64,000 nt of DNA from a bacterium (GCA_021791445.1 JAJYWO010000002.1:21757-85756), one strand, 5' to 3'; shown: positions 9,003 to 56,038, numbered from the stretch's first letter. Notes: generated from the sequence alone by a model not told the origin. Numbers and translations: made by a program.

Positions 9003-9731
9003 TTAAATATTAAGATAGTTGCTCCACTTATCGTACAGTTCCTTCGTCGCTCTTAAATCGCCAGCGTTGTATCGGGCGATTTCCAAAAATTTTTTCTCTT
9101 TGTACAATCTGCCAACGTCGTCTCCGGTGACGCCGTCTTCTTTGGGGCTTTTTATGTTAAAAAGTTTGCTCCACAAATGCAGACTCCCCTTTTTGCGCAT
9201 ATTACCTTGAAAAGTGAGCTGGTCCGCCAAATCAATGTGCGTACAAGTTTTTTGTTGATATAAATACCGACTTTCGGAAAGATTTTTCGTGGGTCTGATA
9301 CCGTGATAAGCCGAGCGAATCATCAAAAACGGTCCGTCAAATTGCCGGCTGCTGAATCCGATAAATTCATCGTATATTTGGCTGCCCTTCCAGAAATGTT
9401 CCAACATTTCTTTTTCCGTCATTTGCTTGAAAGTGATGCCGTTTTCGCTGAATTCCTCTCCGCCAGCCGGCGGATTTTGTCCGGGCGCGCTGTAATAAAC
9501 AACCCCTTGGTTTTTCGCGTAATCCAAAACGCCGATTGCCACAATTTCTCCGGTTAAAGGCGAAAAACCGAGCCCGTTTTTCAGTTCTTCCAGAGCCACT
9601 TGATAATCCTCTTCTCCAGTTGATTCCTTTTTAATCCAGCGCGTCAAAGAATCTTGCGTTGTCTCGTCCAAAGAATCAAAATCAACTCCGATTGTCTCAA
9701 TATCAAAAATAAGCTTATTAGTTATTGACAT
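9003..9731 (-). CDS. RNase H-like 3'-5' exonuclease (DEDDy type)
   Basis: FDIET (Exo I), HIDLAD and Y-x3-D (YNAGD) motifs. Confidence 0.55.
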   Translation of the reverse strand: MSITNKLIFDIETIGVDFDSLDETTQDSLTRWIKKESTGEEDYQVALEELKNGLGFSPLTGEIVAIGVLDYAKNQGVVYYSAPGQNPPAGGEEFSENGITFKQMTEKEMLEHFWKGSQIYDEFIGFSSRQFDGPFLMIRSAYHGIRPTKNLSESRYLYQQKTCTHIDLADQLTFQGNMRKKGSLHLWSKLFNIKSPKEDGVTGDDVGRLYKEKKFLEIARYNAGDLRATKELYDKWSNYLNI

Positions 9732-15512: not shown

Positions 15513-15587
15513 TGGTGCGCGATAGAAGGATTGAACTTCTGACCTCTTCAATGTCAATGAAGCGCTCTACCACTGAGCTAATCGCGC
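15513..15587 (-). tRNA. tRNA-Val(GAC)
   Basis: Cloverleaf folded by hand. Anticodon loop TTGACAT. CCA is encoded. Confidence 0.85.
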
Positions 15588-15635
15588 ATATTATTTTTAC
15601 GATTAATATTATTTATTATTTTTTTATTTTTGTCC

Positions 15636-15652
15636 GCCTTCGGCGGATGAAC
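15636..15652. repeat. REP-like hairpin TCCGCC-TTC-GGCGGA in the tRNA-Ile/tRNA-Val spacer. A tRNA-Val 5' fragment lies nearby at 15733-15756.
   Basis: Seen in the sequence. The reverse complement of 15733-15756 (GCGCGATTAGCGAAGTGG) resembles the tRNA-Val 5' acceptor and D arm. Confidence 0.45.
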
Positions 15653-15759
15653 GCTCTTCCTGGGTGGCTTTTATTGTCTGTAAGCCGCCCGTTGGCCTGA
15701 TATAAATTTTACTTCGTAAAATTTATGTGGCCAACCCACTTCGCTAATCGCGCAATTTG

Positions 15760-15832
15760 TGCGAGTGGAAGGAATCGGACCTTCGACCTCCATATTATCA
15801 GTATGGCGTTCTACCACTGAACTACACTCGCC
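15760..15832 (-). tRNA. tRNA-Ile(GAT)
   Basis: Cloverleaf folded by hand. Anticodon loop CTGATAA. Confidence 0.85.
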
Positions 15833-15841
15833 TATTAAAAT

Positions 15842-16057
15842 CTATTTCATTATCCCTATTTTTTTTAATCCGTCAAAGTTTATTTTAGGAATTCCATTTT
15901 CTTTAATCGTTCCTTCTCCGAGCGCTCCGCCGGCTTTTATCACTAAAAATCTAATGGCGTAAAAAATAAATCCGATTACGGCAATCAATAAAATCAAGCC
16001 GGAGACAACGAACATAATTTCTTTCTTTTTATTTTTAAAAGTAAAAAACTTTTCCAT
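15842..16057 (-). CDS. Small membrane protein, possibly a PilN-like pilus assembly component
   Basis: Single TM helix. Start is uncertain because the full ORF overlaps the upstream gene. Confidence 0.3.
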   Translation of the reverse strand: MEKFFTFKNKKKEIMFVVSGLILLIAVIGFIFYAIRFLVIKAGGALGEGTIKENGIPKINFDGLKKIGIMK

Positions 16058-22044: not shown

Positions 22045-22064
22045 GTTTTTAATAGCGCCCCCCT

Positions 22065-22322
22065 CTAAAACTTTTCTCGCTCACGACGCTCAGGTTAAAT
22101 AAATCAAATCACTCCAATCGCCCCGCACCTTTTCTTTTAATGATTTTTCTTTAATTTTACACTTAAGACGAAAGTCGGCTTCGCCTTTTAACTTTTTTTA
22201 TACTGTAAATCATGGCTGGAAAAGGTGCGGGGCTTCAATCCGCTCATTGATTTATAATTAACCTTGCGCGATGTTCGCTATGAAAAGTTTTGGAGGAGGG
22301 GTGTAAATAAAACTGAAAAATT
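22065..22322 (+). repeat. MITE-like element, copy A. About 60-bp imperfect terminal inverted repeats flank a 14-bp stem (GCCCCGCACCTTTT/AAAAGGTGCGGGGC) that encloses roughly 95 nt.
   Basis: The termini match the reverse complement of 42055-42306 at about 85%. The core differs between the two copies. Confidence 0.55.
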
Positions 22323-22492: not shown

Positions 22493-23554
22493 TTATTTAG
22501 GATTCAGTTTTTCAATAATCCCTCTGATTTCTTCGGGTGAGAAGAATGAAATGATAATTTTCCCCTTTTCTCCTTCTCCGCCGGCCGGCGGATCTATTTT
22601 CACCGGAGCGCCGAGAAGTTCCATCAACTGTTCCTGTAAGGCGCCGAGTTCCGGGTCTGTTGTTGGAATTTTCGCGTCTGCCGGCTGGCGGATGGTTTTT
22701 TCTTCCGTTGGTTTTGTTTCGCGCCTGATTTTATTTTTTAATTCCCTGACGCTTAAATTATTCGCCAAAAGGTCGTAAAAAGCCGCCATCTGCTGGCTTA
22801 AGTCGTTAATGGTCAAAAGCAACCTCCCTTGGCTGTCGTTTATTTTTCCTTCCGCGAGCGCGTCTTGGATTTCCGTGGGCAGATTCAAAAGTCGTATCGT
22901 GTTGGCGATTGTTTCACGGCTCTTGCCGAGCTTGGCGGCAATTTCCCTTTGAGTCAAACCAAAATGGTCTTGTAATTTGGCGTAAGCTCTGGCGGTTTCA
23001 ATGGAATTAAGATTGGCGCGCTGGATATTTTCCACAATCGCCATTTCCATTTGCGGAGCGCCCGGAGCGATTCTTTTAATAATCGCCGGAATCCGCTCAA
23101 GTCCCGCCAATTTTGAAGCCATCAATCGGCGTTCTCCGGCGATAAGCTGATATTCAATTTGCGTGCCGTTTTCAACTTCGTGTTCTATTTTCGTAACAAC
23201 TATAGGTTGAATAATTCCGAATTCGCGGATTGACGCCGCCAGTTCTTTAAGCGATTCTTCGTCAAAAGTTTTTCGCGGCTGGAAAGGATTGGGTTTTATT
23301 TTTTCTATTTCAATATGAAAAATCGCGTCTTTGTGGAAAGAAGATTTTTCTTCCACTGATTGCGGTTTAACTGCTTGCGGCTGTTCTTGCAGTTGCGTTT
23401 GCTGCGGCTGGACTTGCGGTTGAGAAACTTGCGCTTGTTGAATTTGCGGCGCGAATTCGTGATAATGTTCTGTATCCGTCAAAGGCAGCATAAACGGCGC
23501 TTCTTCCTGCGGCTGTTGAGATTGTTGGGGTTGTTGAATATTTTGTTCGTCCAT
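22493..23554 (-). CDS. parB: ParB/Spo0J-like partition protein with a Gln/Pro-rich N-terminal extension
   Basis: ParB N-domain (GIIQPIVV..GERR) and HTH. The first ~70 aa are Q/P-rich low complexity. A copy of the REP hairpin sits in frame at 22687-22702. Confidence 0.8.
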   Translation of the reverse strand: MDEQNIQQPQQSQQPQEEAPFMLPLTDTEHYHEFAPQIQQAQVSQPQVQPQQTQLQEQPQAVKPQSVEEKSSFHKDAIFHIEIEKIKPNPFQPRKTFDEESLKELAASIREFGIIQPIVVTKIEHEVENGTQIEYQLIAGERRLMASKLAGLERIPAIIKRIAPGAPQMEMAIVENIQRANLNSIETARAYAKLQDHFGLTQREIAAKLGKSRETIANTIRLLNLPTEIQDALAEGKINDSQGRLLLTINDLSQQMAAFYDLLANNLSVRELKNKIRRETKPTEEKTIRQPADAKIPTTDPELGALQEQLMELLGAPVKIDPPAGGEGEKGKIIISFFSPEEIRGIIEKLNPK

Positions 23555-23705: not shown

Positions 23706-23756
23706 GCTCCCATAGCTTAGTGGTAAATCCGCCAGCTGGCGGACTTTTAAGCAATT
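23706..23756 (+). pseudogene. tRNA-Lys 5' fragment in which the D-stem 3' strand and anticodon-stem 5' strand are replaced by palindrome TCCGCCAGCTGGCGGA
   Basis: GCTCCCATAGCTTAGTGGTAAA is identical to the 5' end of the intact tRNA-Lys. It then runs palindrome (23728-23743) followed by CTTTTAAGCAATT. Confidence 0.5.
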
Positions 23757-23768
23757 AATTAATATATT

Positions 23769-24032
23769 ATGGAAAAATTTTTTGTCTATGCTATTTACAA
23801 TAAAGAAAAGAATAAAATTTATATTGGACATACAATTAATTTAGAAAATAGATTAAAAAGACATAATGGGTTATTGAAAAATAAAAATAAATCATTTACA
23901 AGTAAAAATAGCGGCGTATGGGAAATAATTTATAATGAGAATTTAAATGCAAGAAAAGAAGCGATTCTAAGAGAAAAACAATTAAAAAGCGCTAAGGGTA
24001 GAGAATTTGTAAAAAGTTTGATAAGAATATAG
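23769..24032 (+). CDS. Stand-alone GIY-YIG nuclease (YhbQ/Slx1-like, 87 aa)
   Basis: FFVYAIY...IYIGHT.NLE.RLKRHN plus conserved downstream E and R..GRE residues. Confidence 0.75.
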   Translation: MEKFFVYAIYNKEKNKIYIGHTINLENRLKRHNGLLKNKNKSFTSKNSGVWEIIYNENLNARKEAILREKQLKSAKGREFVKSLIRI

Positions 24033-24064
24033 AATATAAAATATTGGGTAAAAAATATAAATAC

Positions 24065-24135
24065 GCTCCCATAGCTTAGTGGTAAAGCAGTTGCCTTTTA
24101 AGCAATTGATCAAGGTTCGATTCCTTGTGGGAGCA
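24065..24135 (+). tRNA. tRNA-Lys(TTT)
   Basis: Canonical cloverleaf. Anticodon loop CTTTTAA. Discriminator A. Confidence 0.9.
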
Positions 24136-24151
24136 CATTTGGCTTTTTTAA

Positions 24152-24228
24152 ATCCATAGCTTAGTGGTAAATCCGCCGGCTGGCGGACTTTTAAGCAATT
24201 GATCAAGGTTCGATTCCTTGTGGGAGCA
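24152..24228 (+). pseudogene. tRNA-Lys-like pseudogene with a degenerate 5' acceptor and palindrome TCCGCCGGCTGGCGGA (24172-24187) in place of the anticodon-stem 5' strand
   Basis: The 3' two-thirds are identical to tRNA-Lys. The 5' acceptor AAATCCA cannot pair with TGGGAGC. Confidence 0.5.
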
Positions 24229-24240
24229 AATTAAATAAAA

Positions 24241-24267: not shown

Positions 24268-25383
24268 TTAATCCATTTCTTTTTTTAAATCCTCCAATAT
24301 TTTTTTCGCTTTCGCATTCGGTTTTTTCGGGGTTTTGATTTTCAGTTCAACAACCAGATTACCGCGGCCGTGCGAGCCGAAAATCGGCATCCCCTGTTTT
24401 GAAATTATCAAATCTCCTTTCAAATCAAAATTTTCCGGAATTTCAATCTGGATTTTATTGCCGTCAATCGTTGGCGCTTCAATTTTTTCTCCCAATAAAA
24501 TATCAACCAGCTTCACTTCTTTTTTAACAAACAAATCATTTCCGCGCCTGTTGAAAATATGATGCGGCTTTATTTTGATTCGAACATAAAGGTCGCCGGT
24601 TCCCGCCCCTTTTTCTCCGGCTTCGCCCGCGCCTTGAACTTTTATTAATTGTCCGTCCATTATGCCCGCCAAAATTTCAATTTTTACATTGCGTTCGCCG
24701 GAAATTCTTCCGGCGCCGCGGCAATTATGGCAAACTTTTTTCGGAATCTGTCCGCTGCCTTGGCATTCTTTGCATTGTTTGATTTGGGTAAAATTGCCGA
24801 AAAAGGTGCTTCTCGCTTCTTTAATCTCTCCCCTGCCTCCGCAAACAGCGCATTTTTCCAATCCTTCTTTAATATCATAGCCTTTGCTTTCGCATTTTTC
24901 GCAAGAAACGGAAATGCCGTATTTTAATTCTTTTTTCGCGCCGTAAAAAGCTTCTTCAAGCGTTATTTCCTGGATAATTTCAACATCCGCTCCGCGATGG
25001 TAAGTGCGGCGTTTTTGTCTTACGCCCATTCCTTCGAAAAACGCGTTGAAAATATCGCCCAAGTCGGCCATATCGCCGAAAGCCGAAGGGTCCCAGCCCG
25101 AGGCTGGTCCGCCTTGGGCGGAAAAATCAAATCCGAATCCAAACGGACCGTTTCCATCGGAAGCGAATCCGCTTTGGCCGTCAAAAACCCTGCCGTATTT
25201 GTCATATTGCTCCCGCTTGTTTTTATCCGACAAAACCGCGTACGCCTCGGCGATTTCCTTGAATTTTTTTTCATCGCCGCTTTTTTTGTCCGGATGATAT
25301 TGATGCGCTAATTTTCGGAAAGCTTTTTTAATTTCGTCTTCCGACGCGCCTTTGTTTATGCCGAGAATTTTATAGTAATCCAA
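24268..25383 (-). CDS. dnaJ: Chaperone DnaJ
   Basis: J domain with HPDK and four CxxCxGxG repeats. Apparent TTG start. Confidence 0.9.
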
Positions 25384-28790: not shown

Positions 28791-28864
28791 TGTATAATTA
28801 TAAATATGTTTTCATAAAATATTTATTTTCGACCATTCGCTTTATAAACATTTATCTTATAAAA

Positions 28865-28902
28865 TATAACATTTTATCTACGATCGCAAATAAAATGTTA
28901 TA
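28865..28902. promoter_or_regulatory. 38-bp palindromic operator TATAACATTTTATCTACGATCGCAAATAAAATGTTATA, about 75 nt upstream of grpE
   Basis: Inverted repeat seen in the sequence. It belongs to the four-member family, with the others at 28990, 29688 and 45311. Confidence 0.5.
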
Positions 28903-28989
28903 TTTTAATAATAATATCTATTTTTAATAAATCAATAGTAAATTATATAGATAAAATATAGTTAATTCAATTTTAGAATAAAAATAAAA

Positions 28990-29027
28990 TATAACAAATT
29001 GTTTACGATCGTAAGTAATTTGTTATA
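28990..29027. promoter_or_regulatory. Second palindromic operator TATAACAAATTGTTTACGATCGTAAGTAATTTGTTATA
   Basis: Inverted repeat with a central TTACGATCGTAA. Lies between the regulator stop and grpE. Confidence 0.5.
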
Positions 29028-29038
29028 CAATATTAAAA

Positions 29039-29662
29039 TTATTCTTCAAAATTTTTAAATTTTTCAAATATTCCGTCATCATCTATTTCTCCAATAGTAA
29101 TCATTCTAATACATTGATAGAGATTTTTCCTTAAAATATCCTCATAAACATCTTCTTCAATGGGTCGCTTTCCCATAAAAACACTTCTCTGTATTGGTTG
29201 ATAATTTATTGACAATAATTGAAATCTTAACCAGTCGCGTTCTTTTCTTTTCTTCTCGGGGATATCAAACATCACCATTCTCCATTTACCGTCCCATGTT
29301 TCCCGCTCCGGTTTATTTTCTTTGTTCTTTAAAAAATCGATTATTTTCAAGCCGGCCGAAGTAATATGATATTTCCTGCCTTTTTTCGTTATCAATCCTT
29401 TTTGCTGAAGCCGCCACAGCGTTGTTCGCGCGCTGTTTTTTCTCATATTTTGCAGTTCGTCGTAATAATCCCAAAAATTCCCGAGATTTGCCATTTTGCC
29501 GTAGCTTCTTCCCAAACTATGTCCGCCGGTTTCCAAAATTTCCGAAAGCGCGGCTGTTCCCCTTTCCGCCAGTCCGAAAATCAGGGCCAAGCCGGCCATA
29601 CTGACATTAATCGGCAATTCTTCAACGGTTTTTTTTAGTTGTTTTTTATTTATGCCGGACAT
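29039..29662 (-). CDS. PaaX-like transcriptional regulator (N-terminal wHTH plus PaaX_C-like domain), in the position usually held by hrcA
   Basis: The wHTH region reads LGRSYGKMANLGNFWDYYDELQ...TTLWRLQQKGLI. The C-terminal WDGKWRMVMFDIPE..R..R..LR..L...QRSVFM matches the PaaX C-domain pattern. Confidence 0.55.
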   Translation of the reverse strand: MSGINKKQLKKTVEELPINVSMAGLALIFGLAERGTAALSEILETGGHSLGRSYGKMANLGNFWDYYDELQNMRKNSARTTLWRLQQKGLITKKGRKYHITSAGLKIIDFLKNKENKPERETWDGKWRMVMFDIPEKKRKERDWLRFQLLSINYQPIQRSVFMGKRPIEEDVYEDILRKNLYQCIRMITIGEIDDDGIFEKFKNFEE

Positions 29663-29687
29663 TTATTATTTTTTATTCCGCATTAAA

Positions 29688-29731
29688 AAGTATAACATCT
29701 TACTGCCGATCGGCAATGAAATGTTATACTT
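29688..29731. promoter_or_regulatory. Palindromic operator AAGTATAACATCTTACTGCCGATCGGCAATGAAATGTTATACTT, 26 nt upstream of the regulator gene and divergent from cysS
   Basis: Near-perfect 44-bp palindrome of the same family. Confidence 0.5.
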
Positions 29732-29803
29732 TTTGTATTTTATTAATATCCTTGGAGTTGTCAATAGTTGCGCATAAAGAGGAAATTTAATAGAATTAAC
29801 GCA

Positions 29804-34535: not shown

Positions 34536-34536
34536 T

Positions 34537-34623
34537 CGGAGAGGGTGGGATTCGAACCCACGGTTCGGTTTCCCGAACAACTTCTTAGCAGGAAGCTGCT
34601 TTCGACCGCTCAGCCACCTCTCC
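34537..34623 (-). tRNA. tRNA-Ser(GCT)
   Basis: Long variable arm. Anticodon loop CTGCTAA. Discriminator G. Confidence 0.85.
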
Positions 34624-34630
34624 AATATTG

Positions 34631-34873
34631 TTATTCTTGAAAAAGATATTTAATTCGTTCTCTTCCTTTCCCTGACTTCAAAAATAATTCTTCTCTTTTG
34701 GCATCTTTCTCTGAAATAAAAGCTTCATAATAAATTAATTCCCAAGGACCATTGTTTTTAGTAAAAATAGAATTGCCGGAATTATGTTCTCTGATTCTTC
34801 GTCTTAAATCATTAGTATAAGCCTTGTATAATTTATTATTTTTTAAACTTTTTAATATATAAACATAATACAT
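34631..34873 (-). CDS. Stand-alone GIY-YIG nuclease (80 aa), immediately upstream of tRNA-Ser
   Basis: YYVYIL...LYKAYTNDLRRRIREHN plus a conserved E and GRE. Confidence 0.75.
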   Translation of the reverse strand: MYYVYILKSLKNNKLYKAYTNDLRRRIREHNSGNSIFTKNNGPWELIYYEAFISEKDAKREELFLKSGKGRERIKYLFQE

Positions 34874-34883
34874 AAAAATTAAT

Positions 34884-34929
34884 ATTACTACTCTCAGCCC
34901 TAGGCTGATCCGCCTCGGGCGGAAGCCAC
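34884..34929 (-). repeat. tRNA-Ser 5'-like fragment (GGAGGCGTGGCT) interrupted by two hairpins, TCCGCC-CGA-GGCGGA and TCAGCC-TAG-GGCTGA, then GGCTGAGAG
   Basis: Minus-strand reading compared with tRNA-Ser GGAGAGGTGGCTGAGCGG. Same architecture as 23706-23756. Confidence 0.45.
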
Positions 34930-34981
34930 GCCTCCAAAAAATCCTTGTAATTATCGCAAATTTCTGATACTTTTACAAGAT

Positions 34982-42054: not shown

Positions 42055-42306
42055 TTTTTATTACGCCCCTCTCCAAAACTTTTCATAGCGAACATCGCGC
42101 AAGGTTAAGGATAAATCAATGAGCGGAATGAAGGATTTTTTGACTATAAATTTAATGGTCGGAAAACTCCTGACATAATTTTACGAAGTAAAATTATGGC
42201 GGAGGGTAAACGGGCACCGTTAAATTTATTCAAAAAATCAGATTGGAGCGATTTGATTTATTTAACCTGAGCGTCGTGAGCGAGAAAAGTTTTAGAGAAG
42301 GGCGCA
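42055..42306 (-). repeat. MITE-like element, copy B. Inverted relative to copy A, with the same terminal repeats and a different core that contains hairpin CATAATTTTAC-TTCG-GTAAAATTATG.
   Basis: Both ends match 22065-22322 in reverse complement. Abuts the stop codon of the SIMPL gene. Confidence 0.55.
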
Positions 42307-45310: not shown

Positions 45311-45356
45311 AAAGTATAACATTTTGTTGTCGATCGACAACAAAATGTTATACTTT
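45311..45356. promoter_or_regulatory. 46-bp perfect palindrome AAAGTATAACATTTTGTTGTCGATCGACAACAAAATGTTATACTTT, 6 nt upstream of the rtcB ATG
   Basis: Same family as the grpE and regulator operators. No Shine-Dalgarno sequence lies between it and the ATG. Confidence 0.55.
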
Positions 45357-45378
45357 TCGCAATTTATAATTATTATTC

Positions 45379-48988: not shown

Positions 48989-49273
48989 CTCCGCAGGTAG
49001 GATTCGAACCTACGACCAACCGCTTACACTTATCTTAATATTTCTATTAAGGGTGGACTATATCTTCGCCATTAATAAATAAATTTATTATTAGGCGTTT
49101 TGGTATCTAGTCTCTACGGCGCCTCCGACAAAACGTCGGAGTTCCCACGGTATTACCACTTCCTTACTATGGCGGAAAAGGCTTCACCGTTATCCCAAAA
49201 TGTTCATTACTAAGTTTCCTTAGAAAGCTGCGTTATTTCACAGGCGGCCGCTCTACCACTGAGCTACTGCGGA
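48989..49273 (-). tRNA. tRNA, probably tRNA-Asn(GTT), interrupted by a 213-nt group I intron in the anticodon loop
   Basis: Exons give TCCGCAG/CTGCGGA acceptor, D arm GCTC/GAGC, anticodon stem GCCGC/GCGGT, T arm GTAGG-TTCGAAT-CCTAC, and discriminator G. The Asn identity assumes the splice follows CUGU and lands before UAA. Confidence 0.65.
49027..49239 (-). ncRNA. Group I intron (self-splicing ribozyme) with no ORF
   Basis: R-like element GTAGAGACTAGA and S element AAGATATAGTCC, which form P7. The 5' exon ends in U and the intron ends in G. A possible P1 pairs exon CUGU with intron GCAG. Confidence 0.6.
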
Positions 49274-49311
49274 ATATTCAATTTTTACGAATTACAGTAT
49301 ATAATTTCGGA

Positions 49312-53953: not shown

Positions 53954-56038
<2,085 letters not shown>

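Follow-up and report, generated by a model that had tools for sequence, protein, structure and literature searches.

The stretch of DNA analysed here, referred to as the window, comprises 64 000 nucleotides from a member of the Patescibacteria (GCA_021791445.1, JAJYWO010000002.1:21757-85756), and this report concerns the spacer between two tRNA genes on its minus strand. tRNA-Ile(GAT), the first gene of the tRNA operon (15759-15831; ARAGORN; Rfam 73.7 bits), is separated by 171 nt, 166 bp of which are an insertion, from an intact tRNA-Val(GAC) (15513-15587; ARAGORN; Rfam 71.3 bits) that is identical to the tRNA-Val of a related locus, L048. Read on the minus strand, the spacer opens with AAATT (15754-15758), corresponding to an ancestral Ile/Val spacer that is 5-6 nt long in sister loci, and continues with a stranded copy of tRNA-Val positions 1-18, GCGCGATTAGCGAAGTGG (15736-15753). 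This copy begins the sequence GCGCGATTAGCGAAGTGGGTTGGCC, located at 15753..15729 on the minus strand, 5 nt after tRNA-Ile. There follow hairpin 1 (15691-15735), in which an outer stem GTTGGCC/GGCCAAC encloses an AT hairpin, ATAAATTTTAC-GAA-GTAAAATTTAT (15702-15726), and hairpin 2 (15662-15690), composed of GGGCGGCTT-11 nt-AAGCCACCC with a single C/A mismatch. The next 14 nt, AGGAAGAGCGTTCA (15648-15661), are a possible continuation of the dead tRNA-Val copy (~positions 19-32). Hairpin 3, TCCGCC-GAA-GGCGGA (15633-15647, given without strand), has the arms of a palindrome that marks the nuclease cassettes described below, and an A-rich leader of 45 nt devoid of an open reading frame (ORF; 15588-15632) leads into the working tRNA-Val. 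All three hairpins have GC stems.

The 5′ end of the insert originates from tRNA-Val. Its first 11 nt equal tRNA-Val positions 1-11, a string with only two exact copies in the 64 kb, and the fragment as a whole matches at 16/18 positions, a result equalled in local alignment by one of 2000 shuffles of the spacer. A repeat search returned a direct repeat of 19 nt (17/19) with a spacing of 166 nt, which stops at the first base of tRNA-Val; the flanks beyond the tRNA sequence are dissimilar. Since the shuffle statistics are joined by empty sites in sister genomes, chance is excluded as the source of the tRNA-Val likeness. The first-pass annotation had read this stretch as a mimic of the tRNA-Val 5′ end, an idea to be given up should the similarity fall to chance in a proper alignment, and with 11/11 and 16/18 matches it stands. 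The same annotation had seen no nuclease gene here and indeed the spacer held no ORF of note, nor did tblastn of the two GIY-YIG proteins encoded in the window give a match within it. Its account of the hairpins needed amendment: the AT hairpin and TCCGCC-GAA-GGCGGA both exist, but the loop is GAA and not GAAG, and the outer stem and hairpin 2 had been missed.

The dead tRNA-Val copy probably runs on to about position 32. Following hairpins 1 and 2, AGAGCG-TTCAT resembles tRNA-Val positions 20-32 (AGAGCGCTTCAT), and the repeat search gives the same match. With the three hairpins excised, a collinear alignment to tRNA-Val scores 17, a score reached by 0/5000 shuffles. The same layout, a 5′ half whose D-loop is broken by GC hairpins and which ends in the anticodon arm, is plain in other genomes, for example at tRNA-Ile(TAT) in L026, L035 and L028.

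Related loci were fetched through the downstream gene for an RluA-type pseudouridine synthase, using species-representative genomes and metagenome assemblies. The filled site was found in L001 (RluA 100% identical), where the spacer is the same as in the window, and in L045 (98%), where it differs by one base; this difference, AAGCCACCC to AAGCCGCCC, abolishes the C/A mismatch and leaves the stem of hairpin 2 perfect. These two loci stem from separate samples, which rules out an assembly artefact. Four independent relatives have empty sites, with a spacer of 5 nt (AAAAT) in L002 (RluA 75-80%), 6 nt in both L050 (72%) and L048/L049 (70%), and 19 nt in L007 (53%). All of them share the order PilO-like gene, 71-aa ORF, tRNA-Ile, tRNA-Val, RluA, with the tRNAs 5-19 nt apart. 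The junction reads ...CTCGCAC AAAAT GCGCGATTAGCTCAGTGG in L002 and ...CTCGCAC AAATT GCGCGATTAGCGAAGTGG in the window, and the two align, so that the fragment sits exactly at the tRNA-Val start of the empty site. What sets the window and its closest relatives apart from these loci is thus a lineage-specific insertion of 166 bp in the tRNA-Ile/tRNA-Val operon. The contigs of relatives with 75-76% RluA identity stop 60 nt before the gene and carry no information on the spacer.

The Ile/Val site is a recurrent insertion target, because L052 and L013 carry other insertions at the same position. In L013 (RluA 50%) the spacer measures 296 nt and consists of tRNA-Ile 3′ copies, then a tRNA-Val 5′ fragment of 15-17 nt and a hairpin-rich insert of 110 nt, which stand before the intact tRNA-Val. 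In L052 (69%) it extends over about 1.1 kb and contains, between tRNA-Ile and tRNA-Val (437-1523), an unrelated 229-aa ORF with an N-terminal helix-turn-helix. A LAGLIDADG-like string, LYLGEGAK, was noticed by eye in this ORF, while searches of Pfam, NCBIfam and PDB sequences gave weak helix-turn-helix matches only and no nuclease domain. Beside the ORF lies a dead tRNA-Ile 3′ half that is interrupted by a hairpin. Several Patescibacteria have, at a distance of 20-230 nt downstream of an intact tRNA-Ile, dead 3′ halves of this tRNA that start in the anticodon loop, continue to the 3′ end and often stand after a GC hairpin (L025:3448-3700, L034:731-900, L013:1560-1700, L014:1072-1140); they are the mirror image of the 5′ fragments.

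Insertions at tRNA genes bring to mind integrative elements that target them, which leave tRNA sequence directly repeated on either side and make the gene whole again with sequence of their own. Read in this manner, the spacer would be an attL-type scar of an integrase-driven element with its attachment site in tRNA-Val, nearly all of which was later deleted. A tRNA-derived direct repeat does flank the Val insert, attachment sites are classically located in tRNA genes, and the 3′-half copies 160-230 nt downstream of tRNA-Ile in L025 and L034 have the usual pattern of such elements. However, neither the spacer and its surroundings nor the sister loci contain an integrase or any other gene of such an element, the tRNA is repeated at its 5′ end where the 3′ part is usual, and the insert measures only 166 bp, hundreds of bases as opposed to kilobases. 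In addition, hairpin 3 ties the insert to GIY-YIG cassettes. We give an integrase origin hardly any chance.

Whether the insert has a role as RNA was considered from its fold and its distribution. The 171-nt spacer folds far more stably than shuffled sequence (z = -4.5), as does the whole tRNA precursor (z = -5.0), and the predicted precursor fold has the 3′ acceptor strand of the intact tRNA-Val paired with the upstream copy. A promoter-like TTGACG-16-GATAAT upstream of tRNA-Ile (15876..15849) makes transcription of the spacer together with both tRNAs probable, and the leader contains a weak promoter-like CGGACA-17-AATAAT (9/12) at 15636..15608. Thus the insert could be envisaged as a functional structured RNA or leader, serving as a processing or insulator module, as a source of promoter for tRNA-Val, or as a decoy for the 3′ acceptor strand that tunes maturation; in its favour, the single L045 difference removes or restores one base pair of hairpin 2. 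Against this, all relatives at 70-80% RluA identity do without the insert, a spacer of 5-6 nt being enough for them, hairpins 1 and 2 were found in no other fetched locus, one substitution does not amount to covariation, the promoter-like matches are at chance level, and Rfam finds no family in the spacer, either at the gathering threshold or at E<=10. A functional RNA is therefore very unlikely in our view, and the predicted pairing with the acceptor strand may represent a possible cost rather than a function.

Several specific candidates were also discarded. SRP, 6S, tmRNA and riboswitch-type RNAs were ruled out by the blank Rfam result even at E<=10. An intrinsic terminator was rejected as no T-run follows any hairpin, hairpin 3 being succeeded by CAAAAAT on the transcribed strand, and a terminator scan was negative. 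A promoter role of the spacer was dropped because the matches were no better than chance.

The window itself contains two GIY-YIG loci with which the spacer can be compared. The first, at tRNA-Lys (23706-24230, plus strand), begins with a tRNA-Lys 5′ copy bearing a palindrome (23706-23762; palindrome 23728-23743), made up of tRNA-Lys positions 1-22, the palindrome TCCGCCAGCTGGCGGA, the anticodon loop and the 3′ strand of the anticodon stem. A GIY-YIG ORF (23769-24032; Pfam PF01541, E = 2e-16) is followed by the intact tRNA-Lys (24065-24136) and then by a palindrome-bearing pseudo-tRNA-Lys (24154-24228). The second locus, at tRNA-Ser (34536-34936, minus strand), has the same layout in its relatives L140-L147. 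It starts with a tRNA-Ser 5′ fragment (34936..34924) whose match at 11/13 positions is not significant alone, continues with TCCGCC-CGA-GGCGGA (34909-34923) and TCAGCC-TAG-GGCTGA (34894-34908), and encodes a GIY-YIG ORF (34631-34873; Pfam PF01541, E = 2e-14) ahead of an intact tRNA-Ser (34536-34624), given as lying 8 nt after the ORF. Both proteins are, by Pfam, a bare GIY-YIG domain. Compared with both loci, as the first-pass annotation had proposed, the Val spacer has the same non-coding layout: the tRNA fragment is present, as are a hairpin with these arms around a loop of 3 nt, an AT-rich stretch and, downstream, the intact tRNA, and the ORF alone is missing.

A contig of the same strain, L149, carries a second version of the tRNA-Ser-linked region (2501-2743 versus 34631-34873 in the window). 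The IF-2, L21 and RecR proteins and two other neighbours are 100% identical and the GIY-YIG protein is 95% identical, with its changes in one patch (NSGNSIF to NSKKITF). This confinement to one patch, among identical neighbours, suggests conversion from a paralogous copy.

To place these loci in a wider setting, a profile of 42 relatives of the first GIY-YIG ORF was searched against metagenome contigs and 80 loci were kept (L053-L132). The ORFs encode 80-90 aa. A same-strand tRNA stands 0-120 nt downstream in about 65/80 loci, mostly tRNA-Lys or tRNA-Asn and also tRNA-His, tRNA-Leu, tRNA-Arg or tRNA-Phe. Upstream of the ORF, a tRNA 5′ fragment starting at position 1 was found in 54 of 64 loci and in 0/64 of the reversed control; such fragments are 13-23 nt long, some extending to position 45 across the palindrome, and most begin 40-60 nt before the ORF start. 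The palindrome (T/C)CCG(C/T)C-N4-G(G/A)CGG(A/G) lies 4-40 nt before the start codon of about 55/79 non-redundant ORFs, its arms co-vary (TCCGTC..GACGGA, CCCGCC..GGCGGG), and TCCGCCAGCTGGCGGA is its conserved 16-nt form. In 22/79 the ORF stop is the TAG of tRNA positions 8-10. A dead 3′ piece or a whole palindrome-bearing pseudo-tRNA is present at most 300 nt downstream of the intact tRNA in 21/54 loci (control 1/54). The full order of the cassette is tRNA 5′ fragment, TCCGCC..GGCGGA palindrome, 80-90-aa GIY-YIG ORF and intact tRNA. Relatives of the tRNA-Ser-linked ORF are 70-95% identical across several candidate phyla, and the nine contigs read for one of them, P0309 (L140-L148), have it linked to tRNA-Ser with the same double hairpin. 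By sequence, the nearest solved proteins are UPF0213 BH0048 and EF2693 and SLX1 (PDB 1zg2, 1ywl, 4xlg) and the catalytic domain of I-TevI. A notion of 'promoter capture', in which a sigma-70 promoter would stand just upstream of the stranded fragment, was dropped as too weak (4/40 cassettes versus 8/280 controls).

Units lacking the ORF exist elsewhere. In L062, five identical 52-nt units, each comprising tRNA-Lys 1-22, the palindrome and the anticodon loop, precede an intact tRNA-Lys, with the ORF just after it, and are joined at GGGT microhomology. Two 61-nt units lie between ORF and tRNA in L069, and L059 and L078 have one each. In L140-L147 a dead tRNA-Ser 5′ half is found between ORF and tRNA; of the two loci L140 and L142, one has a 32-nt GC hairpin in the D-loop of this dead half that the other lacks, direct evidence that hairpins land in dead D-loops after the fact. 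Among the RluA-centred loci without a GIY-YIG gene, 9/87 tRNAs have an exact upstream 5′ fragment of at least 11 nt, including two tandem 112-nt units in L026 and tandem units that take in the upstream leader in L028. The Val spacer has the position-1 fragment on the same strand as its tRNA, the TCCGCC/GGCGGA hairpin, an intact tRNA of the same type downstream and presence/absence polymorphism. Where cassettes have an 80-90-aa GIY-YIG ORF between hairpin and tRNA, it has 45 A-rich bases, so that the most it can be called is an ORF-less derivative, of the kind seen as solo units in L062, L069 and L078.

Some of the same observations would suit a plain local tandem duplication of the tRNA-Val 5′ half, by replication slippage or unequal exchange and independent of any nuclease, after which the spare copy decayed and was colonised by dispersed hairpins. 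Solo units are common away from any local ORF, the upstream 5′ fragments of 9/87 tRNAs standing in loci without a GIY-YIG ORF, the L028 units include leader sequence, the L062 units meet at microhomology, the TCCGCC/GGCGGA hairpin is dispersed in the window (11 copies, five within ORFs), and no ORF remnant is left in the spacer. However, a position-1 fragment with an adjacent palindrome is the rule at GIY-YIG genes (54/64 versus 0/64 in the control) and solo and ORF-bearing units share arrays. Moreover, the flanks outside the tRNA are dissimilar and the repeat ends at the first base of the tRNA, not at an arbitrary point. We thus regard duplication alone as plausible but less likely than not, and as a good deal likelier than an integrase scar or a functional RNA.

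The dispersal of hairpin 3 deserves a closer description. The window contains 11 copies of TCCGCC-N3-5-GGCGGA where 0.04 would be expected, and five of them fall within long ORFs (9459-9474, 22577-22592, 25108-25122, 54385-54400 and 55516-55531). The ORFs concerned include ParB-like and DnaJ-like genes, and the palindrome reads PPAGG in one frame; at 25094-25126 it forms part of a double hairpin, CAGCC-CGA-GGCTG + TCCGCC-TTG-GGCGGA. Repetitive extragenic palindromic (REP) sequences, with the bacterial interspersed mosaic elements (BIMEs) and RAYT genes associated with them, and the Rickettsia palindromic elements are short dispersed GC-rich palindromes, those of Rickettsia lying in frame within genes. 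The window palindromes are like them in that some copies sit within genes and hairpins are nested in hairpins, and unlike REP/BIMEs in that neither a RAYT (HUH) gene nor a head motif was seen in the 64-kb window and in that the palindrome is tied to a GIY-YIG gene and tRNA fragments. The label 'REP' of the first-pass annotation thus fits only loosely: the hairpin is a dispersed repeat, but copies also lie within ORFs, and neither a RAYT gene nor the REP head motif was seen in the window.

The AT hairpin inside hairpin 1 has its own relative in the window, as had been annotated: it agrees at 23 of 24 aligned positions with the core of the second of two copies resembling miniature inverted-repeat transposable elements (MITEs), at 42173-42195. 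These copies (about 22055-22312 and 42064-42304) are about 240-260 bp long and bear terminal inverted repeats of 21 nt, CGCCCCTCTCCAAAACTTTTC; they agree in their ends and differ in their cores, and the core of the second holds the AT hairpin. The insert itself was rejected as a MITE since it has no terminal inverted repeats at its ends, no second copy in the window, and a flanking repeat that is tRNA sequence; what it shares with the MITE pair is the AT hairpin only. A further palindromic repeat of about 46-63 nt, AAAGTATAACAT..CGATCG..ATGTTATACTTT, is present in four intergenic copies (28861-28923, 28986-29048, 29687-29749 and 45311-45373).

Taken together, the spacer shares its architecture with the cassette family, and we consider it probable, with some reserve, that it is an ORF-less 'solo' unit of this tRNA-nested family of Patescibacteria and some other phyla, later invaded by hairpins and probably inert at present. 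The first-pass annotation had offered two options, a solo scar of the module or its empty form. The former is supported by the architecture, as all three non-coding hallmarks common to the window's GIY-YIG loci and 54/64 related loci are present in the spacer, and solo units stand beside ORF-bearing ones; the latter is not, the true empty sites in sister genomes being tRNA-Ile, 5-6 nt and tRNA-Val.

How the cassette enters, what its nuclease and palindrome do, and an earlier ORF at the Val site are matters of inference. A cassette would enter the 5′ half of a tRNA gene and leave the resident 5′ piece stranded upstream; the gene would stay functional thanks to the 5′ part, or the entire tRNA, that the cassette supplies. 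Since the unit has tRNA sequence at both ends, break repair or recombination could copy it into any genome possessing the tRNA in question, and it could also duplicate in tandem. At the Val site the nuclease ORF may have been deleted internally, or a non-autonomous ORF-less unit may have been laid down directly, and the data fit both. Hairpins 1 and 2 would be later arrivals in the dead D-loop, and the spacer would be co-transcribed with both tRNAs and cut away during maturation. The nuclease may act on palindrome or hairpin DNA instead of a tRNA target; to judge from sequence kinship, a relation to SLX1-type enzymes may fit such cleavage, though it is no proof of it.

A number of observations weigh against this interpretation. 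None of the seven sister loci with both tRNAs upstream of RluA (L002, L007, L013, L014, L048/L049, L050 and L052) has a GIY-YIG ORF at the Ile/Val spacer, so that the sister-genome check proposed in the first-pass annotation came out negative, and the spacer retains no detectable GIY-YIG remnant; an earlier ORF is for these reasons unproven. About 90 loci yielded no GIY-YIG cassette linked to tRNA-Val. The TCCGCC/GGCGGA hairpin, as a dispersed repeat that is also present within ORFs and in the rRNA operon, could have arrived independently. It sits after position ~32 of the dead copy, whereas most cassettes have the palindrome at the D-arm. The AGAGCG-TTCAT match is not significant alone (equalled by 580/5000 shuffles), and hairpins 1 and 2 and the AT hairpin, searched for in 132 loci, were found only in the same strain. 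Finally, the route of entry is deduced wholly from anatomy, and an intact tRNA would regenerate any target lying entirely inside it, an awkward point for simple homing.

The cassettes were also compared with known systems involving nuclease genes. In fungal mitochondria, the atp6 case of Allomyces being an example, a free-standing endonuclease ORF reportedly arrives with a replacement gene piece, and the displaced piece remains as a pseudogene fragment beside the working gene. There the duplicated piece is the 3′ end of a protein-coding gene, in contrast to the tRNA 5′ part, the bacterial host, the palindrome and the frequent ORF-less tandem units seen here. Minimal GIY-YIG proteins of the UPF0213 and SLX1 types are, like the cassette nuclease, a bare catalytic domain; the literature searched gives them no link to tRNA genes or to a palindrome, and SLX1 acts with a partner on branched DNA. 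SegB of phage T4, a free-standing GIY-YIG homing endonuclease gene in a tRNA cluster, resembles the cassette as a nuclease gene among tRNA genes that is inherited with flanking tRNA sequence and is patchily present (PMC2330249). The Seg proteins differ in being two to three times larger, with DNA-binding domains, and in having neither a partial tRNA duplication nor a conserved palindrome, and the Val element differs further in having no nuclease gene.

In none of the systems compared does a GIY-YIG protein of 80-90 aa, consisting of the bare domain, occur together with a conserved palindrome, a tRNA 5′ fragment left stranded and tandem units that lack the ORF. A full-text literature search, with subscription journals outside its coverage, found no description of the tRNA/GIY-YIG/palindrome architecture or of the palindrome, and a survey of Patescibacteria tRNA introns does not mention GIY-YIG genes, tRNA pseudogenes or duplications (PMC13011429). 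The cassette family thus appears to be undescribed. We put forward, as a tentative proposal that may well turn out otherwise, that the spacer is a non-autonomous member of an undescribed class of mobile element, in which a bare 80-90-aa GIY-YIG nuclease and the 16-nt palindrome TCCGCCAGCTGGCGGA would be nested in tRNA genes. In such a class the 5′ part of the tRNA would be stranded and the gene restored by the element's own copy, with the ORF often read through to the TAG at tRNA positions 8-10; ORF-less tandem units and in-frame palindromes in protein genes would belong to it, and the tRNA would provide portable homology between distant genomes.

By itself the Val spacer is a harmless scar of modest interest, yet it offers a clean entry point to the cassette family and, with empty sites in four sister genomes, a clean and datable case of the reshaping of a tRNA locus in ultra-small bacteria. 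Were the family confirmed, it would give a concrete biology to the very common genes annotated 'GIY-YIG nuclease family protein' beside tRNAs and would account for pseudo-tRNA fragments that confuse annotation and break assemblies. It would also supply enzymology with a compact pair of nuclease and recognition site, and would show the persistence of selfish DNA under strong genome reduction.

A further tRNA gene of the window is interrupted in a different manner. A group I intron of about 215 nt splits the anticodon loop of a tRNA at 48990-49278 on the minus strand, and was recovered by a focused search with Rfam RF00028 (59.9 bits at 49034-49267), the split gene having been missed by ARAGORN and by the whole-window Rfam scan. 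From a reading of the splice sites, the tRNA is probably tRNA-Thr(UGU). Group I introns in Patescibacteria tRNAs were recently reported (PMC13011429), and the intron in the window agrees with this.

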